Shown piece after piece: positions 15,353 through 62,003 of a stretch of 64,000 nucleotides of DNA (position 1 is its first letter; every line of letters begins with the position of its first letter). The translations under genes and the position numbers were made by a program. Under the pieces are notes generated by a model. The model was not told where the DNA came from, made no database searches, and saw nothing but the letters and a program-made list of their open reading frames with translations. This stretch comes from Nitrospirota bacterium (GTDB lineage Bacteria; Nitrospirota; Thermodesulfovibrionia; Thermodesulfovibrionales; Dissulfurispiraceae), in contig JADFXU010000003.1 in NCBI GenBank assembly GCA_015233365.1, positions 41,307 through 105,306 of the forward strand, in the 5' to 3' direction.

Positions 15353-15519
15353 ACCGGCATGGGCAGGCTGTTTATCGGCCCGCTAAAACTTACCTTACCA
15401 ACACAATGTTCCTTGAAATTGCGCTATTCGAGGACATTCTCGGTTGGGGCTCGGCGTTACTCGCCCCCGCTCCAGTACACCCGTGCTATCGTTCCAATAA
15501 ACAGCCTGCCCATGCCGGT
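15353..15519. repeat. foldback element E1: 23-bp perfect inverted arms around a 121-bp core
   Basis: ACCGGCATGGGCAGGCTGTTTAT (15353-15375) is the exact reverse complement of 15497-15519. The core contains an internal hairpin, CCAAC-A-CAATGTTCCTTGAA/loop/TTCGAGGACATTC-TCG-GTTGG. Confidence 0.9.
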
Positions 15520-15573
15520 CCAATTTATTATTAAATTAATGACAGGATAAGGGGCGTCTCCTGTCCTCCTTGG

Positions 15574-16431
15574 TCAGAAAATCAGACGCTGGCGGGCCGC
15601 TTCATACAGGCAAACGGACACAGCCATGGCGACATTCAGGCTTTCGGCCCTGCCTATCACTGGGATCCTGAACAGCAGCCCGGATTTCTTCAGCAGGACA
15701 GCGCCTATGCCATGCGCCTCGTTTCCGAAAACAACAGCCACGGGCGTCCTGAAATCGGTTTCATAGAGAGAACGCGAGGCGTGGACATCCGCTCCATAGA
15801 GCATGATCCGCCTGTCCGACAGAAACTCAATTAGTTCTTCAATTTCTGCAAAGAGCACCGGCACGGTGAAAATGCTGCCCGCCGACGCCCTGATCGCTTT
15901 AGGCATGAATGGATCGCACGTCCCCGGTGTCAGCAGTACAGCATCTGCGCCTGCTGCATCGGATGCCCGGATAATAGTCCCGATATTGCCGGGGTCCTGT
16001 ATGCCGTCGCATATAACAAGCAATGGTATGTTCTTTGGCGATATCGCGTCAAGCGCAACAGTTTTAAGCGAAAGCACTGCCGCGATGCCCTGCGGCGTTT
16101 CGGTGTCGGCAAGTCTCTCGATGACCCGCCTGGATGTTTCGACAAGCTTGACGGATGTTTCCTTCAGCAGTTTTAAAAGCTGCCGCCCTCCACCCGAAGA
16201 AGAAAACTCTTCAGTGAAAAAAACGTGTTTCAGGTCCGCAATGGGGGAAGCATGCGCCATTTCCACAAGATGTGGGCCTTCAACTATAAAAACACCTTCT
16301 CTGTGCTTCCTGCGTTTTTCCTTTATTTTAAGAGCTTCCCTGATCAGCGGATTCGACGTGCCCGAAACCCTGCGCCCGGAAAAGTCTGACGGCCTCCCTG
16401 CTGTGGATCGTGAAGCGACGTTATCTTTCAT
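15574..16431 (-). CDS. TrmH/SpoU-family RNA 2'-O-methyltransferase (RlmB-like)
   Basis: 285 aa. SpoU substrate-binding N-domain followed by C-terminal SpoU methylase motifs (DGIQDPGNIGTIIRA, VVFGNEAHG, IPVIGRAESLNVAMA). Confidence 0.85.
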   Translation of the reverse strand: MKDNVASRSTAGRPSDFSGRRVSGTSNPLIREALKIKEKRRKHREGVFIVEGPHLVEMAHASPIADLKHVFFTEEFSSSGGGRQLLKLLKETSVKLVETSRRVIERLADTETPQGIAAVLSLKTVALDAISPKNIPLLVICDGIQDPGNIGTIIRASDAAGADAVLLTPGTCDPFMPKAIRASAGSIFTVPVLFAEIEELIEFLSDRRIMLYGADVHASRSLYETDFRTPVAVVFGNEAHGIGAVLLKKSGLLFRIPVIGRAESLNVAMAVSVCLYEAARQRLIF

Positions 16432-17294
16432 AGAGATATTTTGAACGGCGAAGGGGTAAACGTGATAATAAAGATCACCAGGGCCAGCAGTCCCACTGCT
16501 CTTCTTTTCGGGTCAAGAGGAGATTCCCAGTGCAGTACCGGCGGATGCTTTATACCGAGAACGAGCATCAGGACCGCCCATATGAGCCATCCTTCCCACC
16601 CGGAAAAACCAAGCAGAGAGGAAAGGCCGAGAACAGCCAGCAACACGACAAGGCACCGGGACACATAATGCTGCCGCTCGCCCAAAATCGCATATGCGAT
16701 ATGGCCCCCGTCAAGCTGACCGATAGGTATAAGGTTGAGAGAAGTTATGAAAAGTCCTATCCATCCGGCAAAGGCAACCGGATGGAGCAGGACATCGTAG
16801 TGTTCCGGCGTGACACCGAGGACCATACGGGAGAGCAATGAAAAAAGAATGGAATCGCCCAATGAAAGCGTGCCTTCCCCCCCTTGCGCCAGCGGAATGA
16901 CTTTCGATATGCTGAGGCCGATAACACAAGCCACCACGGAAACAATGAAGCCTGCGATCGGTCCCGAGGCTCCGATGTCGACAAGGGCCTTCCGGGTGAT
17001 GATCGGCGACTTCATTTTGATAAACGCGCCGAAAGTCCCGAAGATGGAGGGCGCCGGAATAAAATATGGCAGTGTCGCAACAGTGTGATTTTTTCTGGAT
17101 GCAATATAATGGGACAGCTCATGACAAAGCAATATAGTCATAAGCGTTCCCGCAAAAGGCAGCCCTTCAACAATTCTGCCCGGCGATTTAATGATATTGA
17201 TTCCCTGCTGAAGCGCACCCGCTGATAACGTTGACAGAAAAGTCAGGATGAAAAGACCTATATGAACATAAGGGATCCTGCGCCCATTGACCAT
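16428..17294 (-). CDS. site-2 protease family (peptidase M50) membrane metalloprotease
   Basis: 288 aa, polytopic. Contains the HELSHY zinc motif and the LNLIPIGQLDGGH motif. Confidence 0.85.
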   Translation of the reverse strand: MVNGRRIPYVHIGLFILTFLSTLSAGALQQGINIIKSPGRIVEGLPFAGTLMTILLCHELSHYIASRKNHTVATLPYFIPAPSIFGTFGAFIKMKSPIITRKALVDIGASGPIAGFIVSVVACVIGLSISKVIPLAQGGEGTLSLGDSILFSLLSRMVLGVTPEHYDVLLHPVAFAGWIGLFITSLNLIPIGQLDGGHIAYAILGERQHYVSRCLVVLLAVLGLSSLLGFSGWEGWLIWAVLMLVLGIKHPPVLHWESPLDPKRRAVGLLALVIFIITFTPSPFKISL

Positions 17295-17297
17295 GGC

Positions 17298-18659
17298 CTA
17301 TCGCCTCCCGCCGGTCATCAGTTTGCCTTTCACATCATAATCGTAAGCATCGGTAATTTCAACAGTGACAACATCACCTGTATTTACCGTGTCTTTTTTC
17401 CTCCGCCTCTCCGTGTCATTTTTTTCTTTTTCTATTATGACCATCCCGTCTATCTCCGGAGCATGCGAGTAGAGCCGCGCAAGAATAACGTCTTCCGCCG
17501 CCTCATCGACAATTGCCCTGAAGCGCCTGCCGACAAGTTCCCTGTTCTTTTCGAGCGAAATAAGCGCCTGCCGCTTCATGATTTCTTCAAATCTCCCGGC
17601 TTTCACCTTCCCGGGCACCTGTCCTTTAAGTGCAGCGGACGGCGTGCCTTCTTCCTTTGAGAACATAAAAGCGCCGAGCCTGTCAAAACGCATCTCCTCG
17701 ACAAAATCTACAAGCCCGTTGAAGTCCTCTTCCGTCTCGGACGGGAAGCCGACAATAAACGTAGTCCTGAGCGCAACTCCGGGTATCTCGTAGCGAAGTT
17801 TTCGTATGAGCTTGCGATATTCACTCCGAGTTCCCCTCCGCCCCATGAGCCTCAATATCCTGTCTTCAGAATGCTGGAGCGGGATGTCGAGGTACTTCTG
17901 AATTTTGTCCCCGCCAGCAATGCATTCGATCAAAGCCTCGCTGATCGCCGTGGGATACAGATACAACAGCCGGATATAAAAATCTCCGGGCAAAGATTCC
18001 AGATCGTGCAACAGCGCGACAAGGTCATACCCGTCGAGATCTCTGCCGTAACTCGTAATATCCTGGGCCACCAGGATTAATTCTCTTACCCCCGCCTGAA
18101 TGTACCCGGTCGCCTCAGCCATTATCAGTTCGGGGCGGATACTCCTGAATTTCCCCCGTATCGAGGGAATGACGCAGAAGGTGCACTTCTTGTTACACCC
18201 CTCTGCAATTTTCAGATAAGCGTAGGAAGAGGCCGTAGGGGAGGCTACAGGCGATAGGCTATGGGCTATAGATATTCTACTTTCACGTATTGCCTTTTGC
18301 CCCTTACCACCAGCCATATTTTTCTTGCAATATTCGATAATCTGAGCTTCCTCCCCTACCCCCCAAATCGCGTCGATTTCGGGGATTTCTTTTAACAGGT
18401 CGTCCCTGTACCGTTTGGCAAGGCATCCGAAAACAAGGAGTTTTTTCTTCCCTCCCTTGACACTCGCAAGCCTGAGGACCTCTTCCACAGACTCCTTCTT
18501 TGCGTCATTGATAAAGCCGCAGGTATTCACAAGGAGTATATCCGCATCACCCTCGCTATCCGAACTGACGAAGCCTTGTGCTGCGAATGCCTTGGCCAAA
18601 TGCCCTGAATCGGCAGTATTCTTTGGACATCCAAGAGTAGTAATGTGTATTTTAAGCAC
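17298..18659 (-). CDS. rimO: ribosomal protein S12 methylthiotransferase
   Basis: 453 aa. N-terminal TLGCPKNTADS (UPF0004), radical-SAM CNKKCTFC motif and a C-terminal TRAM domain. Confidence 0.9.
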   Translation of the reverse strand: MLKIHITTLGCPKNTADSGHLAKAFAAQGFVSSDSEGDADILLVNTCGFINDAKKESVEEVLRLASVKGGKKKLLVFGCLAKRYRDDLLKEIPEIDAIWGVGEEAQIIEYCKKNMAGGKGQKAIRESRISIAHSLSPVASPTASSYAYLKIAEGCNKKCTFCVIPSIRGKFRSIRPELIMAEATGYIQAGVRELILVAQDITSYGRDLDGYDLVALLHDLESLPGDFYIRLLYLYPTAISEALIECIAGGDKIQKYLDIPLQHSEDRILRLMGRRGTRSEYRKLIRKLRYEIPGVALRTTFIVGFPSETEEDFNGLVDFVEEMRFDRLGAFMFSKEEGTPSAALKGQVPGKVKAGRFEEIMKRQALISLEKNRELVGRRFRAIVDEAAEDVILARLYSHAPEIDGMVIIEKEKNDTERRRKKDTVNTGDVVTVEITDAYDYDVKGKLMTGGRR

Positions 18660-18781
18660 TTGGATTATTATATCAAAGCGCGTTCTAATTTTCCCTTACA
18701 CCTGTCGTGTTCTTATTTACATGAGGCTGCGGCTGTGCCGTTGTTGCAGTAAATGGATAATTCTGATAATCTTTCCTTGTT

Positions 18782-20902: not shown

Positions 20903-21348
20903 AGAATACCGATCAGCCTATCGAAATTTTACTGGTAGAGGACAATCCCGGCGACGTTCGTTTGACCGTCGAAGTACTGAAGGATGCCAGAGTTCGTAAC
21001 AATATGAACATGGTCAATGACGGAGCCGAGGCACTGGCCTTTCTAAGGCACGAAGGGAAATACTCTGCCGCCCCGCGTCCGGACCTTATACTGCTTGACC
21101 TGAACCTGCCTAAGAAGGACGGCAGGGAAGTGCTGGCTGAAATAAAGGCTGACCCCGATCTGAAGCGCATCCCAGTGGTCGTGCTGACCGTCTCCAAAGA
21201 TGAAGTGGATATACTGAAGTCCTACGACCTGTATGCCAACTGTTATATTACGAAACCGATCAATCTGGAGCAGTTCATCACTGTAGTGAGATCCATTGAG
21301 GATTTCTGGCTGACCATTGTGAAATTGCCGCCGAACGTCGACAAATGA
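20899..21348 (+). CDS. stand-alone receiver (CheY/Rcp1-like response regulator)
   Basis: The start [19 protein letters not shown] overlaps the kinase stop (ATGA). [14 protein letters not shown] phospho-acceptor region and a KP motif. Confidence 0.9.
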
Positions 21349-22841: not shown

Positions 22842-23892
22842 AGTGCTGGTATCCTTCCGTTTTCAGGGCTGATTCCCTGCCCGAGCGGTCAACGGCAACC
22901 CTCTCCTTTGCCGTAATTTCGCCTATGCAAAATGCATGAACGAGGCCGGGCATTGCTGCAGCTTCGGGAGGGACAGTGAATAAAAGCTCATAATCCTCGC
23001 CGCCGGACGCGGCAAGTTCAAGAGGAGACAACCCCATCTTCGCTGCGGCAAACCGCGCGCTTTCCGATACAGGGATTCTTTCGAGATATACCCGCGCACC
23101 CACGCGGCTTTCATCGCATATCCTGCATAAATCCATGAACAACCCGTCGCTTATATCGATCATCGAGGTAATACAGGGCAACAGCTCACGCACGTCCCTT
23201 GCAACCGGCATCAGATGCCTTGCCAGCAGAGGCTTTATCCTGCTGCCGTCAAGCTTCACGAAACCCTCGCCGTATGTCATAACCATATCGGGCAGAGCAT
23301 CTGCATCTTTCTTCCACTGTTTTACCGCTTCCCTGGATTCGGGGGCGAGTCTCTTCAGCAGTTCCAGCCCGCACGCCGCATCACCAGTTGCCGAAGTCAC
23401 ATAAATCCCGTCGCCGGGAGCAGCCCCGGTTCGCGTGACAATCTTGCCGGCTGTGCCGATTACCGTGGCTGAAAGGACCATGTCATTCCGGGCCGCAGAT
23501 AAATCTCCTCCGAGCAGCGCCACCCCATACCGTCCGGAAGCAAACGCAATGCCGTCGTAAAACTCCCGTAAGAAAGTTTCATCAGTATCCCCTTTCATCG
23601 ACAGAGTAAGGAAGAGGTAGCGCGGAGTGCCTCCCATAGCCATTATGTCACTGACATTAACAGAGACGAGCTTGAACCCGAGATGAAAAGGGGCGGTATA
23701 ACTCAAATCAAAATGGACCCCTTCATGCATCATATCGGCGGTAACCAATACTTTTTCTTTGGGAGGAGCTATAGCAGCGGCATCATCTCCGATACCGATG
23801 ATGATGCCGCTGTCCCCTTGCTGTGCAGGAACGTTAAACCTTCTTCTTATTTCTTCGAGAAGCTTTAATTCTCCGATCTGCCGGAGTTGCAT
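22825..23892 (-). CDS. thiL: thiamine-monophosphate kinase
   Basis: AIR-synthase-like fold motifs [16 protein letters not shown] and GGDLS. I prefer the second Met ([19 protein letters not shown]) as the start; the track start is 23931. Either start overlaps the lon 3' end. Confidence 0.85.
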
Positions 23893-26368
23893 GCGTGACC
23901 TTTGAACGCTTTGTGCTGCGAAGCGTCGCACCAGTTTTTATTGCCTTCCGGTCATTCTTACCGGACGATTTTCTTTTAGGGGCCCCGGCCTTTGCCGCTC
24001 TTTTGGCGACGAGGGCGTTTTTCAATACTTCATCCATAGTATCCACAACCACAAAGGTCATCCCTTCCTTAACATATTTTGGAAGGTCGTCGAGGTCCTT
24101 CTTGTTTCTACGCGGAATAATAACTGTCTTTATTCCCATCCTCTTGGCGGCGAGGGCTTTTTCCTTGAGGCCGCCGATAGGCAGCACCCTGCCCCGCAGC
24201 GTAACTTCACCGGTCATAGCAACATCCTTTCGCACAGCTCTGCCGGTCAATGCAGAGGCAATTGAGGTCCCCATCGTAATTCCGGCTGACGGCCCGTCCT
24301 TGGGAATAGCACCGGCAGGGACATGAATATGCAAATCGATACCGGAAAACGTGTCCTCACTCAACCCGAGTTCGGCTGCGCGGGATTTAATGTAGCTCAA
24401 CGCTGCCTGTGCCGACTCTTTCATAACGTCTCCAAGCTGCCCGGTAAGCGTGAGATTACCCTTCCCCTTCATCATCGTCGCTTCGACATATATGACATCG
24501 CCTCCCGCCTCAGTCCAGGCGAGCCCGGTTGCAACACCGACTTCATTAACCTTCATCTCCTCTTCAGGAAGAAACTTCGGAACTCCAAGATATTTATGAA
24601 CATTTTTTCCAGTCATGACAAATGTCCCGGTCTTCCCCTCGGCAACCAGCTTTGCCACCTTCCTGCACAGATTGGCTATCTCACGTTCAAGATTTCTGAC
24701 GCCGGCTTCCCGCGTATATTGCGATATTATTTGCCGGACGGCAGACTCGCCTATTTGCAGTATCTTTGTGCTTATGCCATGTTCATCGAGCTGCTTGGGT
24801 ACCAGATACTTCTTGGCTATATGGAGCTTTTCCTCCTCGGTGTATCCCGACAAATACAGGATTTCCATCCGATCCCTCAACGGCCCTGGAATAGTGTCGG
24901 CAAGATTACCCGTCGTTATAAACATTACATTGGACAGATCGAAAGGCACGGCCAGATAATGGTCCGAAAAAGAGTTGTTCTGCTCGGGGTCCAGGACTTC
25001 GAGCAGCGCGGAAGACGGGTCGCCCCGGAAGTCCGAACCTATTTTATCGATCTCATCCAGCATGAATACCGGGTTGTTCGTACCGGCCTGCTTAATGCCC
25101 TGTATTATCCGCCCCGGAAGAGCGCCTACGTATGTCCTTCTGTGGCCCCTTATCTCCGCTTCGTCGCGCACCCCTCCGAGAGACATCCTGACAAACTCCC
25201 TTCCAAGAGCGCGTGCAATAGAACGGCCGAGTGACGTCTTGCCCACGCCCGGCGGGCCTATAAAGCAGAGGATCGGGCCTTTCATCTTCTCTTTCAGTTT
25301 CCTGACGCTCAGGTATTCGAGAATCCTTTCTTTCACCTTCTCCAGGTCATAATGGTCATCATTAAGCACCTTTTCCGCTTTTTGTATATCCAGCTGGTCC
25401 TTAGTGCCCTTTGACCATGGTATTTCGGTAAGCCATTCAAGGTATGTCCTTATCGTGCCGGCTTCAGCGCTGTCGGGATGCATCTTCTCGATCCGCTTGA
25501 GCTGTTTCTCGGCTTCTTTCATGACCTTTTCAGGCATCTTCGCATCTTCTATTTTTTTCTTGAATTCCCTCGCCTCTTCCGCGCGCTCATCGATGTCACC
25601 GAGTTCCCGCTGTATTGCTTTCAGCTGCTCCCTGAGGAAGTATTCCCGCTGCGTCTTGTCTATTTCGCCCCGCGCCTCGGTCTGGATCTTTTGTTGAATG
25701 GTCAGCAGTTGGACCTCGCGGCTGAGGATTTCCCCCACCCTCTTCAAACGCCTGACCGGATCCGACATTTCCAGTATTTCCTGCGCCTGGTCGGTCTTAA
25801 GCCCGAGATTGGCAGTAACAAGGTCCGCAAGCCTCCCCGGATCTTCTATGTTCTCGATCACAACCATGACGTCGGGCAGGACCGTTTTTCCAAGGCCCAC
25901 CACTTTATCCATCTGTTCCTTGACATTCCGTATCAATGCCTCGTTTTCAATGGATGTTTCAGCCGGTTTTTCCTCGCTGACCTTCTCAATGTCGGCCATA
26001 AAGAACGGTTCCTGCTGCGTAAATCCGCTTACCCTCGCCTTATTCAATCCCTGAACAAGGATCTTGACCCGCCCGTCAGGGAGTTTCAGCATCCTCATGA
26101 TCATACAAACCGTGCCCATCAAATACAGATCATCGACAGCGGGCGTCTCGACATTCAAATCCTTCTGGGCCAGGAGCAGGACCATCCTGTTGGTATTCAG
26201 GGCGTGGTCGATCGCCTTTATGGATATATCCCTGCCCACAAACAAGGGCAGAATCATATATGGGAAAATGACTATATCCCTGACCGGCAGCACCGGAACG
26301 GTATCTGGGATTTCTACTTCCTTCGTCTCCTCTTTACCGCCAACTTCAGCCATCTTCGATTCCTCCAT
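23834..26368 (-). CDS. lon: ATP-dependent Lon protease (LonA) with a ~50-aa basic C-terminal extension
   Basis: 844 aa. LON N-domain, Walker [10 protein letters not shown], and a proteolytic domain with DGPSAGITM (catalytic Ser). The tail [20 protein letters not shown]...RRNKKKV follows the usual end of Lon proteins. Confidence 0.95.
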
Positions 26369-27799: not shown

Positions 27800-27983
27800 T
27801 AGGGTGTGGTTACAGTTGAACTGGGCATTCCAGCATCTCAGCTTCAGACCATCTTCGGCCGGTCCTCAATCTCAAAATCCTCAATGTAGCTCTGCTACAC
27901 CTCCGGTTTTGCTCAATCGGATCGACCAAATCTGGCCCAAATCTGAGCGCTCTAATGCCCAGTTCAACTGTAACCACACCCTA
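27800..27983. repeat. foldback element E2: 30-bp perfect inverted arms around a 124-bp core
   Basis: TAGGGTGTGGTTACAGTTGAACTGGGCATT (27800-27829) is the exact reverse complement of 27954-27983. It starts 4 nt from the tRNA-Leu 5' end. Confidence 0.95.
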
Positions 27984-28140
27984 GTTAACTGACAAAAATA
28001 GCGCTATTAGAATACGATACTAGAAAACAACGTAAAGTGCAACTTTATTGTTCGTATAATTATATAATATACGAGCCACTCAATTCTCGTCCCGCGGTTT
28101 TTGTGTTAATTTTTTTTTGGGAATATTTGGAGGATATTTA

Positions 28141-30593: not shown

Positions 30594-30601
30594 AAAAAAA
30601 G

Positions 30602-30659
30602 AGGGAATACCCGATTTTCGATCACTCTTCCTTACAAGAAAATCAATCGGGTATTCCCT
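30602..30659. terminator. bidirectional intrinsic terminator candidate
   Basis: AGGGAATACCCGATT (30602-30616) and AATCGGGTATTCCCT (30645-30659) form a 15-bp perfect stem. It is followed by T5 on the plus strand (after lpxC) and T8 on the minus strand (after the micro-ORF). The 28-nt loop is unusually long. Confidence 0.55.
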
Positions 30660-30697
30660 AATTTTTCTACAACTCACACAACTCTTTAAAACTTTTC

Positions 30698-30832: not shown

Positions 30833-31381
30833 TTATTTAACCCTCCCCAACAGAGTAATCCTCTTCTCTGACAGGATGCGCTTTAAGCTGATATCTTTTT
30901 TCTTTCTTATCTTATAGTCGGATTCCTCGATAACAGAGCAATTTATTTTTTTGCCGAACTTGTTCTCGATATCCTTTAATCCAAACCAAAGTGCAGGCGT
31001 GGACGGACCAATAACAACCAAATCCACTGTCTGGGCCTCTTCCCCCTCGGCATACGCTCCGTAAATGAAAGCGATGGTCACACCATTGGCCCTCAAAAGG
31101 CTTTTCAGCGCGCCGGGGAGTCCAAGAGATTTTGCGATAAGATTTTTCAGCTCGGAGTACAAGGGAGAGTTATCATTGGCCTGGAAATATTTAAGGTTGG
31201 CAACTTTCTCGCTGAACACGATTCCCATCTCTTCAAGTTTATCCAGTTCTCTTTTCACTCCGGACGGGTTCTTTCTTAAGAGTTTTGCGATTTCCCGCAT
31301 GTAAAACTTCTCATCCGGGCTGTTCAACAACAGCGCCAGAACGTCTGCTCGTATGGATGATGAAAATAAACTTTTAAGCAT
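30833..31381 (-). CDS. winged-helix (ArsR-like) DNA-binding protein with a degenerate nucleotidyltransferase-like C-terminal domain
   Basis: 182 aa. N-terminal IRADVLALLLNSPDEKFYMREIAKLL...VKRELDKLEEMGIV wHTH. The C-terminal IYGAYAEGEEAQTVDLVVIG resembles the GSxxRGE...DxD minimal NTase motif but lacks the Ser and Arg. A TTGACA-N17-TATATT promoter lies at 31402-31430. Confidence 0.65.
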   Translation of the reverse strand: MLKSLFSSSIRADVLALLLNSPDEKFYMREIAKLLRKNPSGVKRELDKLEEMGIVFSEKVANLKYFQANDNSPLYSELKNLIAKSLGLPGALKSLLRANGVTIAFIYGAYAEGEEAQTVDLVVIGPSTPALWFGLKDIENKFGKKINCSVIEESDYKIRKKKDISLKRILSEKRITLLGRVK

Positions 31382-31540
31382 CCCTTTTTTCCGTTACCGT
31401 AAATATAAACAATAATATATTTTTTGTCAACAAAAAAATTACATTTTCAAACGATAGTTGTTTTTTATGAAACGATCGTTTTAATAAAGGATACAATAAG
31501 GTGAGGAATGGTCTGTTAAAATGAGGAATAATTCGACAAT

Positions 31541-31569
31541 TTTGTAGAACGATCGTTCCTAAATCTGAA
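31541..31569 (-). promoter_or_regulatory. promoter-like site with an embedded LexA (Cheo-type) box
   Basis: The minus strand reads TTCAGA-N17-TACAAA, and the 17-nt spacer contains GAACGATCGTTC (31547-31558). That 12-mer is identical to the core of the lexA operator at 61733-61744. Related palindromes are AAACGATCGTTT (31470-31481) and AAACGATAGTTG (31449-31460). Confidence 0.4.
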
Positions 31570-33030: not shown

Positions 33031-33960
33031 ATGTCAAAGATTTTTGATGACATCACTAAGACTACTGGAAACACCCCCCTGGTAAGACTGAATCGCGTCA
33101 CAGCCGGTTTGCATGCCGGCATAATAGCCAAACTGGAATCGTTCAATCCACTTTCAAGCGTAAAAGACCGTATCGGCGTTGCCATGATAGAAGATGCAGA
33201 ACAAAAGGGACTGCTGAAAAACAATTCGGCAATTATTGAACCGACGAGCGGCAATACAGGCATTGCCCTTGCGTTTGCCGCTGCCGCAAAGGGATACAGA
33301 TTAATACTGACCATGCCTGATACCATGAGCATTGAAAGGAGACAACTCCTTCAGGTCTTCGGGGCTGAACTGCACCTGACCCCAGGGGCCGAGGGGATGA
33401 AAGGAGCCATCAAAAAAGCGGAAGAACTACTGAATGCCACGCCCGGAGCATTTATGCCGCAGCAGTTCAAAAACCCCGCCAATCCCGAAATACACCGGCT
33501 CACGACAGCGGAAGAAATATGGAACGACACGGACGGCGGCGTCGACATACTGGTGTCCGGAGTAGGCACCGGCGGTACAATAACCGGCGTTGCCGAAGTA
33601 ATCAGTGAGAGGAAGAAAGATTTCAAGGCGGTGGCGGTAGAGCCCGAAGCGTCTCCTGTGCTGTCGGGAGGCCAGGCAGGGCCGCACAAAATACAGGGAA
33701 TAGGCGCAGGGTTTGTCCCGGAAGTGCTGAATACGAGTATTATAGATGAAGTAATAAAGGTTTCGGACAAGAATGCCGGCATCTGCTCAAGGAGGCTTGC
33801 GAGGGAAGAGGGTATACTTGCCGGCATCTCCGGCGGGGCTGCATTATGGGCTGCGCTGCAGGTTGCGTCGAGGATAGAGAATAAAGGGAAAATGATTGTC
33901 GTGGTTCTGCCTGATACCGGTGAACGGTATCTCTCGACATGGCTTTTCAAAGAAGAGTAA
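33031..33960 (+). CDS. cysK: cysteine synthase A (O-acetylserine sulfhydrylase)
   Basis: 309 aa. [11 protein letters not shown], the PLP-lysine region [17 protein letters not shown] and [10 protein letters not shown]. Confidence 0.95.
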
Positions 33961-34920
33961 ATCATCAGGACATTTATACATCATGACGGGGCCCTCGGTG
34001 ACGTGCTTCTTTCGCTGCCCTGCATCAAATTGCTCAAAAAAGATTCATCCTTTCTCCATATTGCGGGTCAGCCCGCGCAGATGAAATTATTGAAAGAAGC
34101 CGGATACGCTGATGAAGTTTCTGAGGCGGGAAGCGCTTTTTATTCCTCGCTTTACATGGCGACTGTGGAAGACAATACGAGGGAATTCCTTGAACGCTTC
34201 GATCGTGCATTTATCTTTACAGTCTCCCCCGACCGGATACCCGATATTAAAAAAACCATATGCGAGACGACGACTGTCGTCACTATTCCACCGCCCGGCG
34301 TAAGTACGCATGCGGCAGAATTCAGATTTAAACAGCTCGACCCGGAATTGACTATGCCGTCGCCGCTGCTGGACATCCCACCTGCACATCGGGGAAAAGC
34401 TGTGATGCTCCTCGCACAGTCCGGATATAGTCCGGGTCCCGCTCCGCTGATAACGCCCTTGATAGCACTGCACCCCGGCAGCGGTGCGAAAAGAAAATGC
34501 TGGCCACTCGAAAATTACTTTGAACTCATGAAAATCCTGGCAAAGAATTTCGATCCTTTTTTCATAATCCTGGCCGGGCCTGCTGAAGAGCCTTCAATAC
34601 GGACCAGGATAAAACAGTTCATTGAAGCATTTTTCGAAGATAGAAAAAAATCATTGTTTGTGAGCAATGAGGAATTGATCTCCGTTGCAGCAATGCTCCG
34701 CCAATGCCGCCTTTACATAGGCAACGATTCCGGCATAACACATCTGGCCGGAGCGGCAGGAAGTGCCTCGATAGCCCTTTTCGGCCCTACTGATCCGTCT
34801 TTATGGAGGCCCCAAGGCAGGAATGTGCACGTTGTCTCCCCGCCTTTTCCGGGCGGTCCCATATCAGCCATTACGGTAGCAGAGGTGTATGAGAAAGCGA
34901 GAGAGGTGCTTCCGGATTGA
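33961..34920 (+). CDS. glycosyltransferase family 9 (heptosyltransferase-like); start codon unresolved
   Basis: LHPGSGAKRKCWPLENY and GNDSGITHLAGAAG are GT9 motifs. The conserved N-terminal IIR...GALGDVLLSLP motif is encoded at 33961-34002, upstream of the first canonical start (GTG 34003) and directly after the in-frame cysK TAA. Confidence 0.7.
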   Translation: MIRTFIHHDGALGDVLLSLPCIKLLKKDSSFLHIAGQPAQMKLLKEAGYADEVSEAGSAFYSSLYMATVEDNTREFLERFDRAFIFTVSPDRIPDIKKTICETTTVVTIPPPGVSTHAAEFRFKQLDPELTMPSPLLDIPPAHRGKAVMLLAQSGYSPGPAPLITPLIALHPGSGAKRKCWPLENYFELMKILAKNFDPFFIILAGPAEEPSIRTRIKQFIEAFFEDRKKSLFVSNEELISVAAMLRQCRLYIGNDSGITHLAGAAGSASIALFGPTDPSLWRPQGRNVHVVSPPFPGGPISAITVAEVYEKAREVLPD

Positions 34921-38038: not shown

Positions 38039-38089
38039 AGCACTTCAATTCATAAATACGGTCACACCGTATTCATGAACTGAAGTGCT
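38039..38089 (-). terminator. long stem-loop directly after the stop of the DHH-CBS-nucleotidyltransferase gene
   Basis: 23-nt arms (38039-38061 and 38067-38089) around a 5-nt loop. The two non-Watson-Crick positions are A/C on the plus strand but G-U on the minus-strand RNA, so the stem is complete only in the sense transcript. Only a short U-run (TTT) follows. Confidence 0.5.
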
Positions 38090-56046: not shown

Positions 56047-56568
56047 ATGAAAAAAATTATTCCCGCAGTTATGGTACTGGCAGCCTTTTGTATTTCGGCA
56101 GTCTCGTCTTCGCTGGCCGCGGAGACCCTGAAGATAGGCATTTTCGACATCCAGAGGATAATGGCCGAATCCCGGACTGTCAAGGGTTACCGCGAGAAGC
56201 TGGCGAATGATCTGGAACCGAAAAAAAAGGCCTTTTTCGCCAAACGGGAAATCGCCAACCAGTTGGGGGAAAAGCTGAAAAAAGATGGGCCATCCATGTC
56301 CGCCTCGGATAGAAGGGCTGCCGAAGACCGGCTCAGCAGCGCAATGCAGGAAATTAAGATAATGAACGAGGACATAAATCTGGATTTCCAGAGGATTAAC
56401 AAGGAGCTTACCCAGCAGGCAGTGGATGGAATATTCAAGGCCGTACGTGATATTGCTTCGAAGGAGAATTATACGGTCATATTCGAGAAAAACCAGGCCG
56501 GAGTTGCATACTCCAAAGGTTCGATTGATATCACGGAAAAGGTCATAAAAGCTTACGACAGCAGGTAA
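56047..56568 (+). CDS. skp: OmpH/Skp-family periplasmic chaperone
   Basis: 173 aa. Signal peptide, then IGIFDIQRIM... and a long coiled-coil region typical of Skp. Confidence 0.85.
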   Translation: MKKIIPAVMVLAAFCISAVSSSLAAETLKIGIFDIQRIMAESRTVKGYREKLANDLEPKKKAFFAKREIANQLGEKLKKDGPSMSASDRRAAEDRLSSAMQEIKIMNEDINLDFQRINKELTQQAVDGIFKAVRDIASKENYTVIFEKNQAGVAYSKGSIDITEKVIKAYDSR

Positions 56569-56730
56569 TCACTTTTCTTTGATCACCATGTCCTCTCACG
56601 CTTCAGCAGCATGTTTGAGTAATAATGGATAACCTATGGAGGAGTGAGTGCTTAATTTTATTATAGTGCAATGGGATCGTTGTCAGTAAACAGAGGTCTC
56701 TATTAATCGCAACTGTGGGGGAGACACGGT

Positions 56731-58740: not shown

Positions 58741-58773
58741 AAAAGACGACTGGGTATGATATGATAACATTTA

Positions 58774-59610
58774 ATGAAAATCGCAGTCTTAGGGTTAGGC
58801 ATTATCGGAAGCGCCTGGGCGAAAAACCTGATCTCGGACGGCCATGCCGTGCGATGCTGGAACCGGACGCCCAAAGATTTTCCGAACTTTCATGCATCCA
58901 TTCAGGAGGCGGTGGAAGGAGCGGAGGTGATCTTCATCATCGTGGCCGACCCTCCGGCAGTGCAGTCCGTTCTGGATAAGATTCAACCCAGCCTTGGCCG
59001 CGGAGTATTGGTTATTCAATCCAGCACAATTTCCGCCAAATGGACTCGACTCTTCGCCGAACAGGTGCAGCGGACCGGTGCATTGTTTTTGGAAGCACCC
59101 TTTACAGGAAGCAAACTTGCGGCGGAGCAGCGGCAAACCGTTTATTATCTGGGCGGCGAACCGGAAGTCGTCGAAAAGGCGCACCCAATCCTCGAACCTA
59201 TATCCAGTGCCATCCTCCATATCGGGCCGATAGGTTCCGCCAGTTCGCTGAAACTTGCAATGAATCTGAACATTGCCGGCGTCGCCCAAACTTTGTGCGA
59301 GAGCCTGAGTTTGTGCCGGGCAGCGGGAATCCCGGATGAAGTCTATTTCAATGCGCTGGCGCGAAATGCTTCACGTTCAGGAGTTTCTGATCTTAAAGAA
59401 CCCAAGCTGCGTCAGCACGATTACACTCCGCAGTTTTCACTCAAGAATATGGATAAAGACCTTCGTCTGGCACTGGAGACCGCTGCCGATCTCTCAGTGT
59501 CACTCGAACAAACAGGACATCTTAAAAAAATCTACGACCAGGGAATGTCCGCCGGATGGGCGGATGATGACTTCATCGGACTCATGCGCCTCCTTACCAA
59601 CAATACCTAA
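58774..59610 (+). CDS. NAD(P)-dependent oxidoreductase (3-hydroxyisobutyrate/6-phosphogluconate dehydrogenase family)
   Basis: 278 aa. MKIAVLGLGIIGSAWAKNL Rossmann motif and a GSASSLKLAMN catalytic-Lys region. Confidence 0.85.
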   Translation: MKIAVLGLGIIGSAWAKNLISDGHAVRCWNRTPKDFPNFHASIQEAVEGAEVIFIIVADPPAVQSVLDKIQPSLGRGVLVIQSSTISAKWTRLFAEQVQRTGALFLEAPFTGSKLAAEQRQTVYYLGGEPEVVEKAHPILEPISSAILHIGPIGSASSLKLAMNLNIAGVAQTLCESLSLCRAAGIPDEVYFNALARNASRSGVSDLKEPKLRQHDYTPQFSLKNMDKDLRLALETAADLSVSLEQTGHLKKIYDQGMSAGWADDDFIGLMRLLTNNT

Positions 59611-60914
59611 ATTTTTATATTCAGCACCGGCAACCCCAGCCTCTGTCTTTTGTTTTCTCCCCTGAAAAGTTCCGTCGCCCTATGCGGCACATCCCCACGT
59701 TCTCCCTCATGCTGCGCCTGAAGTTTTGTCGGCAAACTTGCTGCATGGTGGACAGTGTACTTCCCGAACTTTTCGGAAAGTTGATCTACCGCGCCATAAA
59801 TCCTGGCCATCTTCTCAATCCTGGCAGGATTATCGAAAAGCGTTTGCTGTATGCCGTCCTCGTGGACAAGTCCGGCAAGAACAACGCCTGTCTGCCGATA
59901 GAGATCGGGTGACCGGTAAATTTGCTTAAATCCCTCTTTCAGGAAACCGAAGAGGTCGGACGGATAGGCGGAAGGCGAGCTTAACTTGATTTCAACGCCG
60001 GTATCCCTGAACTCCTGTGTCCTCAGAAATAAAACAAGTCTCGCAGCCGCGAGCCTGTACCGTCTGGCCTTGATACAGGCATTCTCCAGGTTTTTGGACA
60101 GTTGGGCAAATATAAAAGTCTTATCACATGAAGGCGGGGTGAAAGTTTTTGTTTTGCTTATGGATTGATAACTGCACTTTGATTCAGTGGTAACAGCATA
60201 AACGCTTCTTCCATTGAGTTCATGCCATATCTCCTGATATGGCTTGGAGAGGTGCTTTTTGATGAACTGCTCGTCCTTTCGGGCAAATTGAAGTGCGGTG
60301 ATTATTCCAAATTTTCCCAGGAAAGCCGCGGTATTAGACCCTATTCCCCATACTTTTTCTACCGGCAATTCGGCTATATAAAGATGGATGTCCCTGCCCG
60401 GTATGATGGTCAGTCCGTGGGGCTTCCTATGTTTTGAGCCCGCCTTCGCCAGGACCTTTGAGAGGCTTACGCCGACCGACACGGTAATACCCAATTCCAT
60501 CTCGATAGCTTCCTGCATCTGCTTTGCGATCATTTCGTAAGGGCCGTGAAAGCTTCTCCTGAGGCCCGTAAGATCTACAAATGCTTCGTCTATTGAATAT
60601 TCTTCCACATCAGGAGAAAAGCGCCTGAGTATTTCGAACATCCTGAGAGAAAACAGGCTGTAACTCTCATAATCACTCGGGAGGATAACGGCATCAGGGC
60701 ATACTTTTTTCGCATCAAAGAGCCTCATCCCTCTTTTTACTCCCCGGTTTCTCGCTTCATAACTTGCTGCTGCAACAATGCCACGTTCTTTGCCGGTGAT
60801 TACGGGCTTCCCTTTAAACTCAGGATGTATTGCCTGCTCACAGGACGCAAAAAAAGCGTCTGCGTCCACATGCAGGATAGCCCGGGGCCATGAATGTATT
60901 GTTAAAGGATTCAT
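59607..60914 (-). CDS. Y-family (translesion) DNA polymerase, DinB/UmuC-like
   Basis: 435 aa. ILHVDADAFFASCEQ, SIDEAFVDLTG and GIGSNTA motifs. It lies downstream of lexA on the same strand. Confidence 0.9.
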   Translation of the reverse strand: MNPLTIHSWPRAILHVDADAFFASCEQAIHPEFKGKPVITGKERGIVAAASYEARNRGVKRGMRLFDAKKVCPDAVILPSDYESYSLFSLRMFEILRRFSPDVEEYSIDEAFVDLTGLRRSFHGPYEMIAKQMQEAIEMELGITVSVGVSLSKVLAKAGSKHRKPHGLTIIPGRDIHLYIAELPVEKVWGIGSNTAAFLGKFGIITALQFARKDEQFIKKHLSKPYQEIWHELNGRSVYAVTTESKCSYQSISKTKTFTPPSCDKTFIFAQLSKNLENACIKARRYRLAAARLVLFLRTQEFRDTGVEIKLSSPSAYPSDLFGFLKEGFKQIYRSPDLYRQTGVVLAGLVHEDGIQQTLFDNPARIEKMARIYGAVDQLSEKFGKYTVHHAASLPTKLQAQHEGERGDVPHRATELFRGENKRQRLGLPVLNIKI

Positions 60915-60935
60915 CGTGTTATTTTTAATTTAGAC

Positions 60936-61115
60936 AGTGTAATGAGGATATGTCCCTTCTGCTCAGGCGCTGCGTCTTGACAGTTCTAACGGCTCATTCG
61001 CTACAGTCGCAAAACTCGCCTTCGGCTCAGACATTGCGACTGCTTAACGCTCACTTCGCCGAGAACTGTTACCAAGACTCCGCGATTCGCTCCAGAGACA
61101 CATCCTCATTACACT
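60936..61115. repeat. foldback element E3: 19-bp arms (1 mismatch) around a 142-bp core that itself pairs along most of its length
   Basis: AGTGTAATGAGGATATGTC (60936-60954) pairs with GACACATCCTCATTACACT (61097-61115). Inner pairings are GTCTTG/CAAGAC, ACAGTTCT/AGAACTGT, CGGC/GCCG and CAGTCGCAA/TTGCGACTG. The arm mismatch becomes G-U in the minus-strand RNA. Confidence 0.85.
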
Positions 61116-61121
61116 CATTAT

Positions 61122-61715
61122 CTATTTGTATTTCCTCACTACCGCTGTTACCACTCCTGCTATCTTTAATTCATTTTTCGGTCTTATGGGTTTATACAGG
61201 GGATTTGCCGGTATAAGGCTCACGCTGTCTCCCCTCTTTTTGAGATACTTCATGGTCCACTGGCCGTCGACTTCAGCAATAACTATATCTCCGCTCCTGG
61301 GGACCTGTCCCTTATCGACGATCACCATATCGCCCGGGAGTATGCCGGCCCCGGACATGGAGTCTCCGGACACTTTGAGTAAAAAGGTGGCCTGGGGGTT
61401 TTGTATGAGAAGTGCATCGAGCGACATTGTATCCGCAAGCTCTTCCTCAGCAGGGCTCGGGAACCCTGCCTCCACCGTGCCGAGCACTCTTACCGGCGCT
61501 CCTATAGAGCCGGGTATCAGTCGCCCTTTACGATCTCTTTTTATGACCCCCCTCTGTTCCAGGGTGTTAACAAGTTTAAAAACCGCATTTTTTGAATGCA
61601 GCCCTACCATCACCCCGATTTCAGAGAAACTCGGCATCCTGCCGTTTTTATCCAAAAAAACAGCGATATCTTTGACCCTGCTCCTCATCCTGTCTTCTTT
61701 AACATTCCCCGGCAT
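61122..61715 (-). CDS. lexA: LexA repressor (LexA DNA-binding wHTH + S24 peptidase)
   Basis: LVNTLEQRGVIKRDRKGR wHTH, an AG cleavage-site region (VEAGFPSPA), and the S24 catalytic GDSM...K. I chose Met 61715 as the start because the promoter and operator lie inside the longer track ORF (61769). Confidence 0.9.
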   Translation of the reverse strand: MPGNVKEDRMRSRVKDIAVFLDKNGRMPSFSEIGVMVGLHSKNAVFKLVNTLEQRGVIKRDRKGRLIPGSIGAPVRVLGTVEAGFPSPAEEELADTMSLDALLIQNPQATFLLKVSGDSMSGAGILPGDMVIVDKGQVPRSGDIVIAEVDGQWTMKYLKKRGDSVSLIPANPLYKPIRPKNELKIAGVVTAVVRKYK

Positions 61716-61721
61716 AGTTAA

Positions 61722-61751
61722 ATTATAAAGTGAACGATCGTTCACTGTCAA
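61722..61751 (-). promoter_or_regulatory. lexA promoter with an embedded LexA operator
   Basis: The minus strand reads TTGACA-gtGAACGATCGTTCactt-TATAAT-ttaact-ATG. AGTGAACGATCGTTCACT (61729-61746) is a perfect 18-bp palindrome of the GAAC-N4-GTTC (Cheo box) type. Only 6 nt separate the -10 element from the ATG. Confidence 0.7.
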
Positions 61752-61793
61752 GTTGGCGAATTGGATCATCAGAAATCTATTCGAAACTGATTC

Positions 61794-62003
61794 GTTGCAT
61801 CATTTAAAAATCTATCCAAGAGCAGGCGGGACATTGTGCCGTCGCCTTCGAGCAAGGCGGGATGCCTTCGCACCCCAAAAGTCGAGACTTTTGGGGACCC
61901 CGTTGCGAGATTTGAGCCGAGGCACTGTGTCCTGACTGCTCGACACCACTACATCGAACGCTAATAACCAAATATTCTCGAATAGATTTTTACGTGATGC
62001 AAC
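61794..62003. repeat. foldback element E4: 22-bp arms (2 mismatches) around a 166-bp core
   Basis: GTTGCATCATTTAAAAATCTAT (61794-61815) pairs with ATAGATTTTTACGTGATGCAAC (61982-62003). An extra AAATCTATTCGA (61773-61784) is complementary to 61978-61989. The core holds a perfect 9-bp hairpin, CCCCAAAAG-tcgaga-CTTTTGGGG. Confidence 0.85.

Follow-up and report, generated by a model that had tools for sequence, protein, structure and literature searches.

Small foldback repeats of Nitrospirota, one of them inverted in place between lexA and dinB, as candidate mobile elements

Four intergenic foldback elements, E1 to E4, are found in a MAG-derived stretch of Nitrospirota DNA, which was analysed over its whole length of 64,000 nucleotides and is referred to here as the window. 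On balance, they are best understood as non-coding foldback repeats of ~160-215 bp that resemble MITEs, ERIC, YPAL and REPINs and fall into at least three separate, low-copy and diverged families, and we hold with modest confidence that at least three of the four stand for formerly undescribed families of small non-coding mobile repeats in the Nitrospirota. As far as seen, these families are confined to Dissulfurispiraceae-like Thermodesulfovibrionia. In one lineage, E3 has been inverted without leaving its site between lexA and dinB, two SOS genes, and the hairpins of the E2 and E3 families are maintained through compensatory change. Comparison between genomes further suggests that the elements have moved.

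Detection and general properties

An inverted-repeat scan of the window (arms of at least 14 nt, gap of 40-260 nt) yields E1, E2, E3 and E4 as the exact set of pairs scoring 16 or more, while no pair of that score arises in 30 dinucleotide-preserving shuffles, where the top score is 15. A preliminary description of this DNA had placed the four elements; its coordinates are confirmed both by reading and by this independent scan, and the shuffles, which serve as the check on the background rate, uphold its claim that the elements are non-random. They are 167-210 bp long, with arms of 19-30 bp that have 0-2 mismatches, all lie between genes, and the window holds no other long inverted-repeat pair spaced 100-170 nt apart. 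Mechanically called ORFs of 88-114 aa run across them as stop-free frames on the C-rich strand; none was judged genuine, and the lack of stop codons on that strand is their sole cause, so the elements are non-coding, as first described. Likewise, blastn and nhmmer reveal no similarity among the four in either arms or cores, and they are indeed mutually unrelated.

The GC content of the elements is 0.50-0.55 against 0.49 for the window, AT-richness is thus absent, and E2 alone has TA at both ends. With boundary shifts of 3 nt allowed, no direct repeat of at least 3 bp that could represent a target-site duplication was seen at any of 12 elements, the best-preserved copies included; the pair formed by a filled site in the relative L008 and an empty site in the window fits a TAA duplication, ambiguously. 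No transposase, recombinase or reverse-transcriptase domain was detected in the 30 window ORFs scanned against Pfam; the genes beyond these were read through the precomputed Pfam labels of their L008, L009 and L090 orthologues, with a few small ORFs falling outside the Pfam scan. Within this survey, the earlier statement that no mobility gene lies nearby holds.

Rfam covariance models, which include 6S RNA, ribozymes, HEARO and riboswitches, recover two tRNAs only at the gathering score and leave E1-E4 unmatched; in E-value mode chance matches alone appear, the top one being a plant miRNA hairpin on E2 (36 bits vs a cut-off of 140). The cores of E1, E3 and E4 contain no sigma-70-like promoter, the promoter-like match of E2 reaches only 9/12 and overlaps one of its arms, and neither a promoter nor a terminator of its own was found for any of the four. 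Plasmid records yielded nothing similar.

The individual elements

E1 (15353-15519, minus strand) is a 167-bp foldback with perfect 23/23-nt arms and a 121-nt core that is branched rather than rod-like and, unlike the cores of E2, E3 and E4, is not self-complementary. It lies 54 nt past the stop codon of a SpoU/TrmH methylase gene, and the promoter of a GT87/GT2 gene (15317-15288) has its -35 hexamer 35 nt downstream of the element. The orthologous spacer of L009, where SpoU is 91% identical, is devoid of E1, and as blastn and nhmmer found no homologue in the fetched loci of relatives, E1 is an orphan.

E2 (27800-27983, minus strand) spans 184 bp, with a 124-nt core between perfect 30/30-nt arms that can be lengthened to 35 nt at 94%. 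It folds as a G.U-rich rod, more stable on the minus strand (-115.5 kcal/mol) than on the plus strand (-92.1 kcal/mol). The mature 5' end of tRNA-Leu(UAA) lies 4 nt downstream, and E2 is probably within the pre-tRNA-Leu leader. Its site is empty in L090 and L092, and only a short internal-deletion derivative occupies it in L008. A foldback at an unlinked locus of L092 (17128-17336) is homologous to E2 (nhmmer E=2.5e-15), with 82% identity in the core.

E3 (60936-61115, minus strand) is a 180-bp foldback that occupies the whole lexA-dinB spacer, beginning 6 nt past the lexA stop codon and finishing 21 nt ahead of the dinB start codon. Its 19-nt arms have 1 mismatch (22 nt at 91%) and enclose a core of 136-142 nt; the minus strand, which has mRNA sense in the window, is the G-rich and more stable one. 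The relative L001 carries E3 at identical junctions and inverted, with an identity of 175/180 in the inverted sense vs 131/194 in the direct one. The element itself is 97% identical between the two genomes, lexA 86.7% and dinB 85.7%. This is the one documented flip (n=1), a fixed difference between lineages, and the comparison of orientations comes from E3, as E1, E2 and E4 have no orthologous copy.

L092 has an unlinked E3 paralogue at 13720-13933, which nhmmer aligns over positions 4-174 of the 180 (E=1.5e-23), and E3 is missing from L006, L007, L003 and L004. More copies were detected via pseudo-ORFs in Dissulfurispiraceae MAGs; these enter from the same dinB-side flank, have the orientation of the window, and carry repeats that seem to reach into the flank. 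In an exact search, which diverged copies would escape, the 19-mer of the E3 arm occurs once in MAG MFD01476.bin.1.234, the only GTDB representative genome to hold it, and nowhere in the JGI metagenomes. The independent assemblies with E3 comprise an ENA/NCBI MAG contig, a Logan contig and the additional MAGs found via pseudo-ORFs. It was also observed that the lexA-dinB spacer holds hairpins of unrelated sequence in many lineages.

E4 (61794-62003) is a 210-bp composite whose 166-nt core lies between 22-nt arms with 2 mismatches. Homology to its family is limited to 61794-61950. A unique 31-nt stretch follows, and the distal arm (61982-62003), which lies outside the homologous part and 37 nt past the other end of the element, repeats the last 22 nt of the element itself in inverted form. 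E4 is found 42 nt past the stop codon of a 4Fe-4S gene, with the -35 hexamer of the lexA promoter 42 nt downstream of the element. E4 homologues occur in L008 (14849-15007), where the matching site of the window is empty (33960-34003), and in L092 (13481-13648). Nested in E4 is a mini-hairpin module, ACCCCAAAAGTC-GA-GACTTTTGGGG (61872-61897), which is likewise inserted in the L092 copy of the E2 family and recurs at 16938-16963 of L090. Elsewhere in the window, a solo arm copy of another foldback family (63853-63888; 92% over 36 nt) resembles the arms of an L090 foldback (9744-9916) and of an L001 hairpin upstream of lexA.

Homologues, filled and empty sites

A comparison set of ~700 kb of sequence from relatives contains diverged homologues of E2, of E3 and of E4, all in intergenic positions at unlinked loci and 70-82% identical. 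The homology between copies spans arms and core together, at 57-69% identity in the arms and 74-80% in the cores, and profile searches of the ~700 kb gave no further family members. The apparent uniqueness of the four elements comes from the fact that a stretch of 64 kb contains a single member of each family. E1, E3 and E4 are missing from the closest relatives (91-95% protein identity); L006, the closest for the E3/E4 locus, has a LexA that is 95% identical and unchanged synteny, and it is without E4. The comparison of arms and cores with relatives, proposed in the preliminary description, has brought out both copies and empty sites for E2, E3 and E4, and these copies are few, diverged and without duplications rather than numerous, near-identical and flanked by duplications.

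Folding, strand polarity and covariation

The fold energies of E1-E4 range from -79 to -116 kcal/mol, and the cores of E2, E3 and E4 are self-complementary (z-scores of -2 to -7). With two or three sequences per family as the basis, 98% of cells are paired in the E3-family alignment and 12 pairs have changed on both sides, a number equalled in 0/500 shuffles, with 0-1 in slid controls; for the E2 family, pairing extends to 100% of cells, and both sides have changed in 7 pairs. Between E3 and its paralogue, unpaired columns are 88% identical and paired ones 73-75%. The G-rich strand is always the better folder in both families, whichever way the neighbour genes point, and purine-rich symmetric internal loops are conserved (TGAG 24 vs CTCA 5), as are G.U pairs.

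Interpretation

If the elements are mobile repeats, an enzyme with its gene at another place in the genome would mobilise them in trans, and this enzyme would most likely recognise a folded single strand and not conserved duplex ends. Strand polarity and conserved loops suggest so, as do the missing duplications and the faster divergence of arms than of cores. Neither a parent insertion sequence nor such an enzyme was identified in the 64-kb window. Arm-to-arm recombination or gene conversion may keep both arms of a copy perfectly complementary, and the same process could invert the core and extend the repeat outward. Where copies are co-transcribed, for which the tRNA-Leu leader, the lexA-dinB spacer and the 3' ends of the genes for SpoU and ferredoxin are candidates, they are predicted to form long double-stranded RNA rods, and these could change the processing or stability of the flanking messages depending on orientation, as in ERIC and Correia elements. 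The preliminary description had offered three ideas, among which single visible members of several MITE-type families comes closest: the homologues of E2-E4 and the filled and empty sites speak for it. The orphan state of E1, the lack of duplications, a base composition that is not AT-rich and the low copy number count against it.

The elements might instead be structured RNA elements selected by the host, either cis-regulatory hairpins or small RNA genes, an explanation that is unlikely but has an appreciable chance. A few duplications would have spread them, and they would exert their effect on the very transcripts in which they lie. E3 would, for example, adjust the expression of dinB against that of lexA, the processing of pre-tRNA-Leu would be shaped by E2, and the patchiness would come from a regulatory module being gained and lost, not from selfish mobility. 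The 97% identity of E3 in two genomes that reach 86% in the flanking genes, and loops conserved above stems (88% vs 73-75%, with 12 compensated pairs), are the pattern of a host-selected functional RNA and not of selfish DNA. A fixed strand polarity, purine-rich symmetric loops and conserved G.U pairs agree with this, and so do the sense orientation of the more stable strand to the neighbour genes in 4/4 window elements, the LexA-box promoters adjoining 2/3 E3-family and 2/3 E4-family copies, and the unrelated hairpins that the lexA-dinB spacer carries in many lineages. However, the more stable strand is antisense to its neighbours in L001, L092 (fbA) and L008, and a cis-acting RNA role therefore cannot cover all copies. 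Moreover, the closest relatives keep the same operons without the elements, the contexts are unrelated (a tRNA leader, gene 3' ends, positions upstream of promoters), modules are nested in one another in the style of mosaic repeats, and neither an Rfam match nor a dedicated promoter or terminator was found. The earlier idea of a structured class with a covarying closing stem survives in so far as the stems covary, but arms and cores are homologous together and are not free stems around unrelated cores. The remaining idea, invertible switches, has gained from E3 being inverted in place in one relative and has lost from the missing promoters and invertase. Taken as a full account, in which a recombinase encoded elsewhere flips the cores and phase-varies tRNA-Leu, lexA, dinB and the glycosyltransferase gene, it has a slim chance. 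Repeats of 19-30 bp around segments of 120-170 bp are of the usual inverton size, both orientations of E3 occupy identical junctions in related genomes, and 4/4 elements are directly upstream of genes, E1 and E4 at 35-42 nt from strong promoters; against this, the cores of E1, E3 and E4 lack a sigma-70-like promoter, the window has no invertase or integrase gene (30 ORFs vs Pfam, the rest via orthologue labels), the four repeat pairs share no motif for a single recombinase, and the single documented flip is fixed between lineages. Near-palindromic cores also mean that flipping alters little at the DNA level, and unlinked homologous cores with presence and absence among relatives are not inverton behaviour.

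It is very unlikely that the hairpins were made on the spot by local inverted duplication, through template switching or fold-back repair, and are mutually unrelated and immobile. Several hairpins of relatives are built from short tandem units or inverted adjacent sequence, as in L007, where the left arm is a mirror image of the region around the dinB start; the distal arm of E4 copies the element's own end in inverted form, and the repeats of the pseudo-ORF copies of E3 seemingly extend into the flank. As the source of E2-E4, local duplication is nevertheless contradicted by cross-locus homology, since their arms and cores are homologous to unlinked elements in other genomes; it may account for arm growth and not for the origin of the elements. 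Assembly artefacts, that is, chimeric inverted joins or misoriented repeats, have next to no likelihood: in a MAG such as this one, assembly could conceivably misorient a 140-bp core that is flanked by 22-bp repeats, but E3 recurs in independent assemblies, E2 and E4 have homologues in other assemblies, and every element sits inside a long contig, between intact genes.

A bolder form of the mobile-repeat reading, with a small chance of being right, would make the rods of the E2/E3 type a new class of strand-specific structured mobile element. The element would be recognised and copied as a folded single strand, of DNA or RNA, with its conserved purine-rich internal loops, and one arm would serve as the template for the other whenever the closing stem is renewed. 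Such regeneration would explain arms that are perfect within a copy, locus-specific and spreading into flanks, as well as the flipping of the core. If this were true, repeated settling in the SOS-controlled loci of the clade would be implied, and the amount of error-prone polymerase would depend on which way E3 points between lexA and dinB.

Comparison with known systems

Invertons such as fimS, the Bacteroides capsule promoters and the Clostridioides difficile RecV switches have repeats of 10-30 bp and segments of 100-300 bp. The present elements are like them in having repeats around a segment upstream of genes, with E3 in both orientations, and unlike them in having no internal promoter (E1, E3, E4), nearby recombinase or shared repeat motif. 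The attC sites of integrons, which are 57-141 nt long, stand behind gene cassettes, depend on an integron integrase and have RYYYAAC/GTTRRRY core sites at the base of the stem. The analogy to attC lies in a class set by fold and not by sequence, in strand polarity and in unpaired bases. E1-E4 differ in their length of 167-210 nt, their place among housekeeping genes and the lack of an integrase domain in the 30 scanned ORFs, and no attC core sites were seen at their stem bases when the ends were read by eye. Retron non-coding RNAs combine flanking a1/a2 repeats with a reverse transcriptase gene next to them, and the neighbouring ORFs of E1-E4 contain no reverse-transcriptase domain.

MITEs, as defined in two published accounts, are non-coding, shorter than 500 bp and usually of 100-200 bp, with terminal inverted repeats of ~4-30 bp, flanking duplications, AT-richness and TA termini (PMC10969869; PMC2229807). 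E1-E4 have the size, the non-coding nature, the terminal inverted repeats and predicted long stable stem-loops; E2, E3 and E4, but not E1, also have unlinked homologous copies with filled and empty sites, whereas target-site duplications and AT-richness with TA termini are wanting. Target-site duplications fade with age (PMC10969869). Correia/NEMIS of Neisseria, RUP and QMITE are similarly small and non-coding, with terminal inverted repeats of ~24-26 bp, and Correia elements and classical MITEs share the long transcript hairpins and the intergenic and 3' untranslated positions; the Correia hairpins are RNase III substrates (PMC10969869). Classical MITEs differ in being AT-rich, in having duplications of TA or another target, and in conserved termini shared with a parent IS, none of which is seen in E1-E4.

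REPINs, which are REP doublets mobilised by RAYT tyrosine transposases, are likewise hairpin units whose stems are kept by compensatory changes, show no classical duplications and are thought to act as folded single strands, with the transposase elsewhere as a single-copy gene (PMC3116915). In contrast to REPINs, the arms of E1-E4 are not REP palindromes and have no GTAG/CGTC tag; REPIN ends are most conserved and the spacer least, while in E1-E4 cores are conserved above arms, and the large populations of similar REPINs have no counterpart seen here. REPIN-like GTAG-tagged pairs do occur in the more distant relatives L030 and L043.

ERIC (127 bp) and YPAL/RU-2 (~168 bp) are imperfect palindromes of enterobacteria and Yersinia (PMC2229807). 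They differ from E1-E4 in their target-site duplications and their tens to hundreds of copies (PMC10969869), whereas E1-E4 have no duplication found, few copies that are 18-30% diverged, and outer arms of 19-30 bp that are perfect within a copy and diverge faster than the cores. The likeness extends to the size range, the imperfect palindrome over the whole length, the intergenic position, co-transcription with neighbours, occurrence in either orientation and a presence that varies among close relatives. YPAL, moreover, is like E1-E4 in that it is not AT-rich, has no TA termini and inserts at or beside dyad symmetries (PMC2229807). A further feature in which E1-E4 would resemble ERIC and YPAL is the formation of long stem-loops in RNA, whose effect on mRNA stability depends on orientation.

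Four foldbacks beyond the chance background

It is evident on reading the sequence that the four intergenic foldbacks of the preliminary description, E1 (15353-15519), E2 (27800-27983), E3 (60936-61115) and E4 (61794-62003), are present as described, each with terminal inverted repeats (arms) around a core. Of the seven longest inverted repeats that a repeat finder reports for the window, four are E1-E4; in the remaining three the arms overlap or are separated by no more than 8 nt, so that E1-E4 are the longest whose arms stand 100-170 nt apart. When the window was scanned for arms of at least 14 nt separated by 40-260 nt, scored as arm length minus 3 per mismatch, exactly E1-E4 reached a score of at least 16, in keeping with the preliminary description, which saw no comparable structure in the other intergenic regions that it covered. 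The background rate in shuffled DNA, which had been named as a test, was zero at this score in 30 dinucleotide-preserving shuffles of the window (maximum 15).

All four fold as long hairpins (-79 to -116 kcal/mol). The core alone is significantly self-complementary in E2 (z = -7.1 and -3.5), in E4 (z = -2.2 and -4.4) and in E3 (z of about -2 to -2.6), and the core of E1 is branched, with no significant self-complementarity. Rfam at the gathering threshold returned only two tRNAs and no match to E1-E4, and its E-value mode over all four element regions gave chance matches only; the best example, a plant miRNA hairpin at 36 bits on E2, shows that any long hairpin scores against a rod-like covariance model. 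Judged by eye, none of the hammerhead, HDV-like, K-turn and CsrA-type motifs fits E1-E4. The motifs common to E3 and E4 (TCGCCTTCG and CAGGCG), from which the preliminary description had drawn no homology, hint at a relationship that was rejected, being undetected by blastn or nhmmer. Two other hairpins with 22-24-nt arms and short loops, at 38039-38089 and 30595-30666 between convergent or tandem genes, the second of them with runs of A and T on its flanks, have the look of ordinary terminators, in part bidirectional, and not of foldback-family members.

Genomic setting

The window belongs to a Nitrospirota MAG, and its LexA is 100% identical to an NCBI 'Nitrospirae bacterium' protein. The genes adjoining E1-E4 are all on the minus strand, except for TldD next to E2, which is divergently transcribed from the plus strand. 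E1 is bounded on one side by the stop codon of a gene for a SpoU/TrmH methylase and on the other by the promoter of a GT87/GT2 glycosyltransferase gene. E2 is separated by 4 nt from tRNA-Leu(UAA), which lies downstream of it. E3 takes up the spacer from lexA to a dinB-type polymerase gene, and E4 separates a ferredoxin gene from the lexA promoter. This promoter (61722-61751, minus strand) is a perfect 12/12 match, TTGACA-18-TATAAT, and between its hexamers sits the palindrome AGTGAACGATCGTTCACT (61729-61746), a Gram-positive-type LexA box of the form GAAC-N4-GTTC; the layout recurs in the related loci L001, L003, L006 and L007. No sigma-70-like promoter was found inside the cores of E1, E3 or E4. 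A block GTTGCACTTT..TTGTTTT.TAGTATC (27984-28050, minus strand), kept upstream of tRNA-Leu in the window and in the relatives L008, L090 and L092, is probably the tRNA-Leu promoter. E2 is inserted between this putative promoter block and the tRNA, and the conserved block, together with a weak promoter match, would place it in the tRNA leader.

No transposase, recombinase or reverse transcriptase was found in the 30 window ORFs scanned against Pfam, and the remaining window genes, a few small ORFs excepted, were judged from the Pfam labels already computed for the orthologous genes of L008, L009 and L090. The preliminary description, which had seen no transposase, invertase or reverse transcriptase gene nearby, agrees with both.

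Several other features of the window deserve mention. In front of the gene for ribosomal protein L9, at 3488-3548, TTCAC/GTGAAC-type direct and inverted repeats form a dense cluster that may be bound by a regulator. Lon protease is encoded by one intact 844-aa ORF (23834-26368); in L008 (5222-8330) the gene is called as a 670-aa product and several small fragments, which may reflect disruption or sequencing error in that relative. Two GAAC-N4-GTTC-like sites at 31463-31557, conserved in L090 and L092, precede a small HTH-like gene (182 aa, 30833-31381, minus strand) that is probably SOS-regulated.

Filled, empty and flipped sites in relatives

Orthologous regions of relatives, which bear the names Dissulfurispira or Dissulfurispiraceae, were fetched through neighbouring proteins. 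E3 and E4 are both missing from the closest relative, L006, whose LexA is 95% identical and whose CdhD-ferredoxin-lexA-dinB synteny is the same; L009 (SpoU 91% identical) is without E1, and the tRNA-Leu site is empty of E2 in L090 (TldD 83% identical) and L092 (80%). At this site L008 (TldD 92% identical) carries a hairpin with a 23-bp stem. The stem can be aligned with the E2 arms and the ends of the loop with the edges of the E2 core, and this short hairpin is therefore better read as E2 that has lost its interior.

In L001 (LexA 90% identical), E3 occupies exactly the same junctions and is inverted relative to lexA and dinB, with an identity to the window copy of 175/180 in the inverted sense against 131/194 in the direct sense. 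Nucleotide identity between the two loci is 86.7% for lexA and 85.7% for dinB. Import of E3 with its flanks as a recombinant tract was rejected as an explanation, because along the whole of lexA the window is nearer to L006 than to L001 and the high identity of E3 ends at the arms.

The C-rich strand of E3 is stop-free, and its translation could therefore be used as a query against 1.84 billion representative proteins. One cluster of matches consists of mistaken ORF calls over further E3 copies (P0363; P0365, NCBI MGO9105333.1, from a Dissulfurispiraceae MAG; P0366, on five contigs). These ORFs all come into E3 from a flank whose back-translation, CAATTCAGAC, matches the dinB-side flank of L001 exactly, but they read E3 in the orientation of the window; L001 is therefore the flipped lineage, and the flip occurred in place. 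The weaker protein matches come from other organisms, in which units of 186-290 nt are repeated in tandem. Translations of such arrays, weakly similar to E3 halves, are P0361 (Geofilum rhodophaeum WP_146697681.1), P0362 and P0364-P0370, and the units may be distant E3 relatives in tandem or chance matches.

Families at unlinked loci

When all foldbacks were compared with all fetched DNA (about 700 kb; blastn and nhmmer), E3 proved homologous over nearly its full length, arms included, to an unlinked foldback in L092 (13720-13933; nhmmer E = 1.5e-23), and the E2 core was 82% identical to another L092 foldback (17128-17336). E4 matches L092 13481-13648 and L008 14849-15007. The L008 copy has a PALP gene on one side and a GT9 gene on the other, and the orthologous spacer of the window is empty. 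The three E4-family copies have common ends and differing internal modules, and a 25-nt mini-hairpin of E4 recurs as an insert in the L092 copy of the E2 family and again in L090. No relatives of E1, and no further members by the E2, E3 and E4 family profiles, were found in these 700 kb or so.

The seemingly unique sequences are thus single representatives of several repeat families, given that E2-E4 have homologues and the window shows one copy of each. The candidate explanation of single-copy members of several MITE-type families gains support for E2, E3 and E4 from these unlinked homologues; the earlier claim that E1-E4 have no sequence in common stands.

A multi-copy MITE with conserved ends, tried through the exact 19-mer of the E3 arm, was rejected: among the GTDB representative genomes the 19-mer has a single locus, in the L001 MAG, and it is absent from the JGI metagenomes. 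Since arms differ between copies, this exact probe was too strict, and a motif of the conserved core would be more suitable. The core motifs of the E2, E3 and E4 families had no matches in IMG/VR viral contigs, and the four concatenated elements had none among PLSDB plasmids (blastn).

A further family is represented by a solo arm at window 63853-63888 and by a foldback at L090 9744-9916, which separates TldD from the tRNA-Leu promoter and has 34-bp arms around a core of about 105 nt; its arm sequence recurs in L001, where a short hairpin of 72 nt (9898-9969) immediately precedes the lexA promoter. In L092, E4-like and E3-like elements lie side by side next to the promoter of the small HTH-like gene that is probably SOS-regulated, in the order and orientation of E4, lexA and E3 in the window.

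The lexA-dinB spacer as an insertion hot spot

Of 57 distinct lexA-dinB loci (L010-L089 and the window), 20, about a third, have a spacer of 45-1210 nt; in the other 37 it is short, with a median of 23 nt. The long spacers are mostly strongly folding hairpin inserts, unrelated in sequence, which marks the spacer as an insertion hot spot. Some lineage pairs, for example L077/L081 and L039/L041, have a common spacer element with covarying arms, and the outer arm of L077 resembles that of E3. In inserts of more distant relatives (L030 2343-2708, L043 1056-1345, L027, L074 and L066), GTAG-tagged palindromes (GTAGGGGCGAACGGCCGTTCGCCCTTAC) occur as inverted pairs, which are REPIN-like units with long spacers. 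Expanded lexA-dinB spacers suggest a simple natural way to uncouple the SOS repressor from the error-prone polymerase.

Pairing, polarity and the evolution of the ends

Each family alignment comprises two or three sequences, and in those of E2 and E3 the ends have diverged more than the interior. E3 and its L092 paralogue are 69% identical in the arms and 80% in the core, and E2 and its L092 relative 57% and 74%. Pairing is retained: paired cells make up 98% of the E3-family alignment, in which both partners have changed in 12 pairs, over five helices, a count reached in 0/500 shuffles (slid controls 0-1); in the E2 family 100% of cells are paired, with 7 pairs changed on both sides, 6/7 of them in the outer arms. 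A model in which the cores are mobile inserts in pre-existing locus-specific hairpins was rejected, because the arms, too, are homologous between copies (57-69% identity, with compensated changes).

Unpaired columns of the E3 family are 88% conserved, against 73-75% for paired ones. The E2 and E3 families also have a fixed polarity, the same G-rich strand being the more stable by 11-23 kcal/mol in every copy, including copies antisense to their neighbours (L001, and the foldback fbA in L092). This strand has conserved G.U pairs and purine-rich symmetric internal loops, for example GA/GA, GAUUGAG/AGAUUGA and GAAAUGAG/AAUGA, and carries TGAG 24 times against five for CTCA. No consistent strand polarity was found in the E4 family.

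A proposed mechanism and alternatives

The simplest explanation of the polarity, conserved loops, compensated stems, lack of duplications, and fast-evolving but perfectly matched arms is a two-step mechanism. In the first step, an enzyme whose gene lies elsewhere would act on the element in the form of a folded single strand; in the second, the two arms of one copy would exchange sequence by recombination or gene conversion. The flip of E3 would follow from such exchange, as would the secondary distal arm of E4 and what looks, in other E3 copies, like a spread of the repeat into the flank.

In the main rival reading, the E3 family at least would be a structured RNA under selection by the host. 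The 97% conservation of E3 and its conserved loops speak for this; the antisense copies, the lack of a promoter and a terminator, and the absence of E3 from the nearest relatives speak against it; of the structured RNA or DNA class proposed earlier, the compensated stems of E2 and E3 are what survives. The flip of E3 in L001 likewise lends something to the proposed invertible switches, but a classical inverton is unlikely, as there is no internal promoter and no recombinase in the window, the repeat pairs are without a common motif and the cores are near-palindromic. Palindromes formed on the spot are excluded for E2-E4 by homology across loci, and an assembly artefact is excluded by independent assemblies that carry E3 and homologues of E2 and E4.

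Significance and comparison with known repeats

Enterobacteria, Neisseria, pneumococci and pseudomonads have well-studied small palindromic repeats; a full-text search gave no description of any from Thermodesulfovibrionia or Dissulfurispiraceae. The present families depart from the usual rules: they make no target duplication, they contain nested modules, one has been flipped in place, their ends change more quickly than the interior and still pair perfectly, and they have a fixed strand polarity with conserved loops. Should polarity and loop conservation be upheld in a larger census, they would point to mobilisation through a folded single strand, and a gene co-occurring with the families across genomes would be a route to the mobilising enzyme. 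For annotation, the elements explain why MAGs from this clade have oversized spacers and small ORFs that are called spuriously.

Overall, the data fit small foldback repeats of the MITE, ERIC, YPAL or REPIN kind, whose class properties have been described (PMC10969869, PMC2229807, PMC3116915), since the elements are small, non-coding, intergenic and hairpin-forming, fall into families with members at unlinked loci, and differ in presence from one relative to another. Near-identical copies with target-site duplications, by which the preliminary description would have recognised ordinary MITEs, are not what is seen, as no flanking direct repeat of at least 3 bp was found at any element. E1-E4 are thus set apart from members of the MITE class, in that two defining features of MITEs, target duplication and AT-richness, are absent and a third is reversed, the ends being less conserved than the interior.
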